Positions 19,786-20,047 of a DNA stretch of 60,487 nucleotides are shown piece after piece. Made by a program: the position numbers and the translations under genes. The notes beneath the pieces were generated by a model that was given only the letters and a program-made list of their open reading frames with translations, made no database searches and was not told the origin of the DNA. Position 1 is the first letter of the stretch; each line of letters opens with the position of its first letter. Location of the stretch: IMG/VR virus record IMGVR_UViG_3300018481_000002, positions 87,199-147,685 of that record; one strand, written 5' to 3'. Source of the stretch: a virus (Duplodnaviria; Heunggongvirae; Uroviricota; Caudoviricetes).

Positions 19786-19905
19786 CGCTTGGCGTAGCTA
19801 GGCGGGGCTTGGCAGGGCCTGGCACCGCATGGCTTGGCAGAACAAGGCTCGGCCTGGAGGGGCTCGGCTAGGCCCGGCAGGGTGGGGCAAGGCTAGGCAG
19901 GGTAT
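19786..19905 (+). ncRNA. GGY-NN pentamer array A (candidate guide RNA)
   Basis: 24 units in perfect 5-nt register; 19/24 start with GGY and 23/24 have a pyrimidine at position 3. Confidence 0.85.
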
Positions 19906-19919
19906 AACTAGATCAGCGA

Positions 19920-19996
19920 CGCGGGGTGGAGCAGTTCGGTAGCTCGTCGGGCTCATAACCCGAAGGTCGTGGGTTCAAATCCCACCCCCGCTACCA
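19920..19996 (+). tRNA. tRNA-fMet (CAT), initiator type
   Basis: C1:A72 mismatch, three G-C pairs in the anticodon stem, loop CTCATAA, encoded CCA. Confidence 0.95.
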
Positions 19997-20002
19997 AGAC
20001 GA

Positions 20003-20047
20003 GGCGAGGCCGGGCAGGGCCTGGCACCGTGGGGCACGGCAAGGCAG
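20003..20047 (+). ncRNA. GGY-NN pentamer array B (candidate guide RNA)
   Basis: ggcga ggccg ggcag ggcct ggcac cgtgg ggcac ggcaa ggcag, starting 6 nt after the tRNA CCA. Confidence 0.75.

Follow-up and report, generated by a model that had tools for sequence, protein, structure and literature searches.

An initiator tRNA gene between two predicted VIPR guide-RNA arrays of a phage and its possible role in forming guide ends

In the genome of an uncultivated Caudoviricetes phage represented by IMG/VR record IMGVR_UViG_3300018481_000002, an initiator tRNA gene lies between two arrays of GGY-NN pentamers, which raises the question of whether the processing of this tRNA is used to make the ends of guide RNAs. 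The window analyzed here is the stretch of 60,487 nt covering positions 87,199 to 147,685 of that record, and coordinates below refer to the window unless another sequence is named. An earlier note on this DNA had proposed that host tRNA maturation would release two separate guide RNAs from one transcript, with no need for a Cas6-like enzyme. We examined what the arrays encode, how the locus is likely to be transcribed, and whether tRNAs or elements resembling them are found next to such arrays in other genomes.

The gene was identified as a tRNA-Met(CAT) at 19920-19996 on the plus strand by ARAGORN and by the Rfam tRNA model (65.5 bits), and is one of three tRNAs that ARAGORN lists in the window. 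Its features are those of a bacterial initiator tRNA, with C1.U72 left unpaired, A11:U24, an anticodon stem closed by three G-C pairs in a row, and a CCA that is encoded in the DNA. The two programs and these features agree with its earlier reading as tRNA-fMet. Array A consists of 23 GGY-NN units in a single phase, with the first GGC at 19791 and the last GGT at 19901-19903, leaving 16 nt between array and tRNA, which shrinks to 14 nt when the final NN is taken as part of the array. Array B has its first GGC at 20003, 6 nt past the CCA of the tRNA, and runs for 10 units before a GGG unit. The spacing given previously, with A ending 14 nt before the tRNA and B starting 6 nt after the CCA, is confirmed by these coordinates with the upstream gap read as 14-16 nt. 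A foldable, full-cloverleaf tRNA is therefore present directly between two same-strand arrays, 16 nt downstream of one and 6 nt upstream of the other. The 17-mer said to be common to A and B, GGCAGGGCCTGGCACCG, was also recovered, with exactly two copies in the window (19811 and 20013) and none in shuffled sequences. We considered the 17-mer as a target-site duplication left by insertion of the tRNA and rejected this, as the two copies do not flank the tRNA. The RNA spanning A, the tRNA and B is no more stably folded than shuffles of it (z = 0.2), which fits guides that are bound in an extended form. The features of the locus are collected in Table 1.

Table 1. Positions of the arrays, genes and predicted signals in the window.
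Feature	Position	Strand	Basis
GC-rich hairpin terminator after the major-capsid-like gene, usable on both strands	19564-19600	.	sequence, terminator scan
vrRNA array D, ~13 GGY/NN units	19644-19706	-	periodicity scans
Predicted array D promoter, TTGGCC-17-TACTCT	19737-19765	-	read by eye; not in strict scan
Predicted promoter P_A, TTGAAC-18-TACTGT, with box GAACACTTGNAC	19751-19780	+	read by eye
vrRNA array A, 23 pentamers, one phase, ends GGT-AT	19791-19905	+	phase and periodicity scans
tRNA-Met(CAT), initiator-type, 77 nt with CCA	19920-19996	+	ARAGORN, Rfam, cloverleaf reading
vrRNA array B, 10 units, then GGG-TT unit and short GGGG/CCCC hairpin	20003-20052	+	sequence, periodicity scans
68-aa ORF, strong AGGAGG ribosome-binding site, directly after array B	20108-20314	+	ORF list
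Predicted promoter P_C, TTGCAC-18-TACAGT, with box GAACACTTGNAC	20329-20358	+	read by eye
vrRNA array C, ends ~30 nt before vipr start codon	20366-20432	+	periodicity scans
vipr, 193 aa, minimal RAMP protein	20463-21044	+	PDB 36pp_D match; phrog_4652
vap-like accessory gene, 170 aa	21041-21553	+	homology to post-vipr genes
Anticodon-less tRNA-like element, ~80 nt, after vap	21661-21742	+	Rfam tmRNA model 55.6 bits, both ends matched
vrRNA array E, between minus-strand gene and bidirectional terminator	30173-30247	-	periodicity scan

VIPR loci encode a minimal RAMP protein, Vipr, with a G-loop and a thumb, usually one vap gene, and vrRNAs built of 9-16 YNNGG repeats followed by a tail, of which at least four units are required; the NN dinucleotides read dsDNA with one base skipped per unit, binding silences the transcription of competing phages or satellites, and in type II VIPR the vap product is a predicted DNA-binding protein (10.64898/2026.04.26.720920, 10.64898/2026.04.26.720927, 10.64898/2026.10.15.759431). 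The vipr ORF of this phage lies 460 nt downstream, and its product matches PDB 36pp_D, the 'SUSP1 Vipr protein', over residues 3-189 of 193 (E 9.1e-38). The vap-like ORF overlaps the end of vipr and is homologous to the post-vipr genes of MakoManhole ('DNA binding protein', E 1e-13) and Felixounavirus Alf5 (E 1e-9). A vipr gene, intergenic GGY/NN repeats with variable NN, and a vap beside vipr are thus all present. Based on the Vipr match, the vap homologue and the GGY/NN repeat, we conclude from sequence that the locus is a type II-like VIPR and that the arrays are its vrRNA genes. The earlier suggestion that the arrays encode guide RNAs holds in this form, given the GGY/NN vrRNA repeat with vipr and vap just downstream, and independence from a Cas6-like enzyme is in keeping with VIPR loci having no Cas6-like gene. 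A Vipr homologue is also encoded in 49 of 120 viral loci that were retrieved solely by a six-unit GGC pattern. Two other roles considered for the pentamers, one TRAP-like or as a translation enhancer and one at the DNA level as iterons or a source of curvature, were dropped after the Vipr match.

To see all arrays of the phage, the complete 147,685-bp virus record was scanned with 50-nt windows for at least five in-phase GGC. Such arrays were found at only 10 places genome-wide, every one of them intergenic, indicating that the periodicity is beyond chance and not an effect of composition. Five places are clustered ~29 kb upstream, outside the window analyzed here, four are at 19634-20430, and one is at 30173-30247. 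In all ten the GGY is on the strand of the neighbouring genes or of a predicted promoter. The upstream cluster (genome G000 77160-78460; locus L003 1660-2960) holds five vrRNA arrays of 15-30 units each, four of which directly precede a small ORF (three Cys-rich, one membrane-like) while the fifth precedes the next array. Some arrays of this cluster are located behind promoters of the TTGACG-18-TACATT type.

Seven of the ten arrays of the phage precede an ORF. The element that follows is the tRNA for array A, a terminator for D and E, and a ribosome-binding site with an ORF for B, C and four of the five arrays of the upstream cluster, so that most arrays have no adjoining tRNA. Array E is situated in the 3′ part of a minus-strand gene, not behind its own promoter. 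The terminators after arrays E and D (30110-30250 and 19564-19725) are bidirectional and near-identical, GAAAGGCCCC...GGGGCCTTTC. No conserved structured 3′ tail is common to the ten arrays beyond a terminal NNGGG or NNGGA unit. This type of end is nearly universal and consists of a unit with a purine third base (NNGGG or NNGGA) followed by W and then T/Y, as in AGGGTAT, AGGGGTT, AAGGGTT, GAGGGAT and ATGGGTT; it was seen in the window (19899-19906, 20046-20052) and in loci L003, L185, L167 and L171. Purines are reportedly excluded from the pyrimidine pocket of Vipr, and it is possible that the purine-ended unit may mark the end of the filament. When the NN dinucleotides were read with the 1-nt skip rule, no self-targets above shuffled controls were found in the 148-kb phage genome, and the 9-unit target pattern of array B had 0 exact matches in IMG/VR.

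Arrays D and A are separated by a 50-bp spacer that holds back-to-back promoter-like hexamers. The GAACACTTGNAC box, which covers the −35 hexamer, is found as an exact copy only before arrays A and C. The predicted promoters were read by eye and are weak relative to the sigma-70 consensus, and a consensus promoter scan listed none in the array region, including none between A and B. A TATAAC in the end of array A was considered as a promoter and rejected, as it has neither a −35 nor a TG element. The terminator scan gave no plus-strand terminator-like site between 19600 and vipr, and the hairpin at 19564-19600 would end the minus-strand transcript of array D. With no terminator or promoter between A and B, and the box present only before A and C, we infer that a single transcript started at P_A probably covers A, the tRNA and B.

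This transcript would bear on the two guides differently from what was first proposed. Because a promoter is predicted for array A itself, the tRNA would be needed only for the 3′ terminus of A and the 5′ terminus of B. In arrays A, C and D, transcription is predicted to start 3-8 nt from the first repeat unit; since the tRNA ends 6 nt before B, a 5′ end made by tRNA 3′ processing would resemble the primary 5′ ends of the other arrays. Array B continues into the mRNA of the 68-aa ORF, for which only a sub-threshold zinc-finger match was found, and the release of B on its 3′ side as an individual small RNA is therefore not evident. The proposed release of two separate guide RNAs is retained here for the two ends that face the tRNA, and not for B as a small RNA of its own, as B runs into an mRNA.

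The mechanism that we propose begins with A and B as guides whose NN dinucleotides would specify the DNA targets of Vipr filaments, as expected from homology to SUSP1. A, the tRNA and B would be co-transcribed from P_A, and if they are, both guide ends that face the tRNA, 3′ for A and 5′ for B, must arise by tRNA maturation. The tRNA is presumably matured, with all of its initiator identity elements kept. Cleavage by RNase P at the 5′ end of the tRNA would yield the 3′ end of vrRNA A, leaving a trailer of 14-16 nt that could be trimmed back to the Vipr filament, and 3′ processing at or after the CCA would yield the 5′ end of B, no more than 6 nt before its first unit. Since the CCA is encoded, RNase Z is an unlikely maker of that end, and textbook tRNA processing would lead one to expect an endonuclease to cut within the 6-nt linker and exonucleases to trim the product. 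The tRNA would then occupy the position that an acceptor/T-arm tail has in relatives, acting in translation initiation and at the same time punctuating a guide array. The last steps of this mechanism draw on the comparison with other genomes that follows and on textbook tRNA processing.

To find genuine tRNAs next to arrays elsewhere, IMG/VR was scanned with a pattern of a T loop and, 10-40 nt further on, five GGY units, giving 56 loci. In 10 of these the T loop belongs to a genuine tRNA with a full same-strand array 3-27 nt after it. These tRNA-array junctions come from six other viral lineages (L158/L177, L166, L167, L171, L197/L198 and L199) that have no DNA similarity to the window or to each other, beyond that within the pairs L158/L177 and L197/L198. 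A stricter scan of one genome per prokaryotic species identified bacterial junctions in Dactylosporangium roseum, Clavibacter lycopersici and two MAGs. In the 97-kb genome G003 (L167), arrays are found 4-6 nt after all four tRNA-Arg genes and after 0 of the 29 other tRNAs (binomial p 4e-9; 5e-4 under an intergenic-only null), and one array has tRNAs on both sides. A 395-kb phage (L199) has the arrangements Val-array-Val and Leu-array-Leu, with the arrays 3-5 nt after each tRNA, and in L171 a tRNA-Ile is followed by an array and then by arrays with tRNA-like tails, beside a vipr gene. A Vipr homologue was found in three of the five whole junction records searched, including both complete ones, encoded elsewhere in the genome.

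Co-occurrence of tRNAs with arrays in homologous loci had been put forward in the earlier note as a way to check the idea, and the outcome was mixed. Recurrence was found in six viral lineages and four bacterial genomes among loci selected by a pattern that requires a T loop and then an array. Conversely, of 280 arrays in the 120 loci that were not selected for tRNA motifs, none is within 400 nt of a tRNA, and a T-loop motif is downstream of only 8 of them against ~4 expected; VIPR is likewise missing from the 21 relatives of the phage described below.

Two further observations were made on these genomes. tRNA-Arg is over-represented before arrays, as in the four G003 junctions, G002 (L166; acg), L158/L177 (cct) and a Phycisphaerales MAG (L225; tct). 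The L158 tRNA cluster has three tRNA-plus-array units (Arg, Asn and Trp) on its minus strand at 5660-5835, 8060-8240 and 11140-11330, all of which share one short tail, GGCAAGGGACGTACCYTCGGGGAGT, at their ends; the L158 record, 73% complete, yielded no vipr.

The closest relatives of the Vipr protein are those of L185 (57% identity), L152 and Gordonia phage MakoManhole (PQ184807), and in L185 and MakoManhole an array is placed just upstream of vipr in the same layout as array C. Among the remaining loci of the T-loop scan, most have their T loop outside any tRNA, in a module of 45-55 nt located behind each repeat tract. It opens with an acceptor-like stem of 5-7 bp and a short loop in which GG is almost invariant; a canonical T arm (GGTTCRANTCC) and the returning 3′ strand of the stem come next, and a terminal ACGC leads straight into the next array. 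Aligning 66 of these modules showed pairing in 91.7% of cells and changes on both sides at nine of ten pairs; the covariation score is 0.774, compared to 0.18 in shuffles (0 of 500 reach 0.774) and at most 0.23 when the partners are slid. MakoManhole, a cultured phage, has a tRNA-like module both before and after its arrays. Relatives of the SUSP1 and P. fulva types have hairpin or pseudoknot tails with no T loop, which agrees with the published tail of the SUSP1 clade.

In the Vipr tree, the window protein groups with L185 and L152 with support of 100/97, and both of these have tRNA-like tails. Nine of the 12 other members of the enclosing clade (support 95/90) have such tails as well, a count that is only indicative because sampling was biased toward T-loop loci. 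A covariance model of the module (R1) found no full copy in the window or in the upstream cluster, and an acceptor/T-arm tail module is absent beside the arrays of both regions. In this phage, only the genuine tRNA behind array A combines the tail position with an acceptor stem and a T arm.

The most serious alternative is that the arrangement is a historical accident, in which a resident translation tRNA became flanked by a landing VIPR cassette or by an array duplication, and any cleavage next to the arrays is an unselected by-product. The locus is in a cargo slot (19545-22791) between the capsid-like gene and the next conserved structural gene, and the slot is of variable size, measuring 3.25 kb here compared to between 163 nt and 2.1 kb in 21 relatives that a search with the capsid gene identified (66-87% identity). 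Its contents in this phage are the VIPR locus and three tRNAs (fMet, Lys-CTT and Arg-TCT), with a gene for an HNH endonuclease (22117-22524) separating the Lys and Arg tRNAs. Arrays and vipr are both absent from all 21 relatives, and tRNAs are found in the slot of three of them (L124, L125 and L137), two with an initiator-like tRNA-Met that aligns to the window tRNA. Judged by its contents, tRNAs and accessory genes have a hotspot in this slot, and the tRNA between A and B may be older than the VIPR cassette. Since a tRNA-Met occurs in the same slot of relatives without VIPR, the juxtaposition could be partly historical. An accident would also sit well with the unselected arrays that have no tRNA and with the common 17-mer, a hint that B is a partial duplicate of A. 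The other arrays of this phage manage without a tRNA, which counts against the role proposed for it. When the phage collection was searched for near and distant DNA matches, only the tRNA itself was recovered, and no sister of this vipr locus turned up in the viral or metagenome collections; close relatives of vipr were absent from IMG/VR, and the metagenome collection gave only two matches, both distant, with 33-38% identity.

An accident does not readily account for the tight 6-nt spacing on the same strand, for spacings of 3-9 nt that are repeated in several unrelated phages where some arrays are flanked by tRNAs on both sides, or for tRNA-like modules at the same position in the nearest Vipr relatives. 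We consider it rather unlikely, yet well short of negligible. The junctions in unrelated lineages, together with covarying tRNA-like modules at the same position in the closest relatives, suggest that the juxtaposition is more than accident. Formation of guide ends by way of the tRNA, as a feature that the phage uses, is in our view the probable reading, if by no means an assured one. The claim that tRNA maturation separates the guides thus gains comparative support from the junctions and the tRNA-like modules of sister systems, with co-transcription deduced from the signals around the arrays.

Another explanation is that the tRNA stays attached to vrRNA A as a 3′ tail that protects the end or nucleates the Vipr filament. 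The tail of SUSP1 does belong to a mature vrRNA of ~100 nt, and sister systems have tRNA-like modules in tail position. However, a complete tRNA with an intact acceptor/T-arm stack and an RCCA end is a canonical substrate of RNase P, the conserved initiator identity elements argue for release and use in translation, and 16 nt of non-repeat linker separate the last unit of A from the tRNA, making a permanently attached tail improbable. It is highly improbable that the arrays are DNA-level binding sites or curved DNA at promoters to which the tRNA is unrelated, since, although D and A flank divergent promoters in inverted orientation and the A-tRNA-B RNA has a fold energy not beyond that of shuffles, all ten arrays have their GGY on the strand of neighbouring genes or a predicted promoter, Vipr, a binder of exactly such RNA repeats, is encoded beside them, and absent RNA structure is expected for a guide bound in extended form.

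With tRNA-dependent formation of guide ends as the preferred reading, the locus can be compared to known systems. Like the type II VIPR of SUSP1 and a Pseudomonas fulva prophage, it is phage-borne, has a full-length Vipr homologue with vap directly after it, and has GGY/NN arrays in intergenic DNA to either side, including one immediately before vipr. It differs in that vrRNAs of the SUSP1 and P. fulva type end in a hairpin or pseudoknot tail, whereas the arrays of this phage have no conserved tail and one of them adjoins a genuine tRNA; there are also five more arrays 29 kb away, and array A has 23 units compared to the published 9-16. The tRNA-like tails of MakoManhole (PQ184807), L185 and L171 share with it the Vipr clade, the position, a canonical T loop and an acceptor-like stem, but those are mimics of 45-55 nt that lack an anticodon arm and end in ACGC, and the element of the present phage is an entire initiator tRNA of 77 nt, CCA included.

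Engineered polycistronic tRNA-gRNA arrays, mitochondrial tRNA punctuation, MALAT1-mascRNA and tRNA-linked small RNAs all depend on RNase P and tRNA 3′-end enzymes to free the flanking RNAs from a single precursor. To our knowledge, none of these tRNA-punctuated transcripts is a natural phage guide-RNA array, the RNAs that they carry being other guides or cargo.

VIPR was described only in 2026. For the ends of its guide RNAs, the VIPR papers report pseudoknot tails, staggered arrays and hammerhead-interspersed arrays, and the word tRNA is absent from those papers (10.64898/2026.04.26.720920, 10.64898/2026.04.26.720927, 10.64898/2026.10.15.759431). One other paper contains both words, vrRNA and tRNA, and draws no connection between them. 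Hammerhead ribozymes are interspersed in type I and type V vrRNA arrays (fig. S19, 10.64898/2026.04.26.720920), and there as here a structured RNA between guides defines their ends without a Cas6-like protein; the ends are made by self-cleavage of the ribozyme in that case, and in our proposal by host RNase P and 3′ enzymes acting on a tRNA with a function of its own. What appears to be new is a genuine, apparently functional tRNA in the role of a vrRNA tail, along with predicted vrRNA genes interleaved with tRNAs in the clusters of unrelated large phages.

A tRNA or a mimic of one between guides points to a third, host-dependent route of guide maturation. More generally, the guides of a large branch of phage VIPR could be matured by the host tRNA machinery, with tRNAs and anticodon-less mimics as interchangeable punctuation and the mimics probably derived from tRNAs; for this broader proposal the case seems to us evenly balanced. 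vrRNAs may hide in the tRNA clusters of large phages, far from vipr, where current VIPR annotation pipelines would miss them, and if the proposal is true, vrRNAs could be seeded into such clusters at a distance from vipr. Guide production would also be tied to an essential host pathway that a competing element would find hard to shut off, and these loci would be the natural counterpart of engineered tRNA-gRNA arrays, providing a natural precedent for tRNA-gRNA multiplexing.

One more tRNA-like structure was observed in the slot. Following vap is a 17-bp perfect hairpin (~21563-21655), and downstream of it is the anticodon-less element at 21661-21742, which is not preceded by a GGY array. Its acceptor stem has 7 bp and includes G3:U70, an inner hairpin and a T arm complete the fold, and the sequence ends in ACGG; the T-arm part of model R1 matches it. 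It is possible that this element may be a relic of a tRNA-like vrRNA tail.
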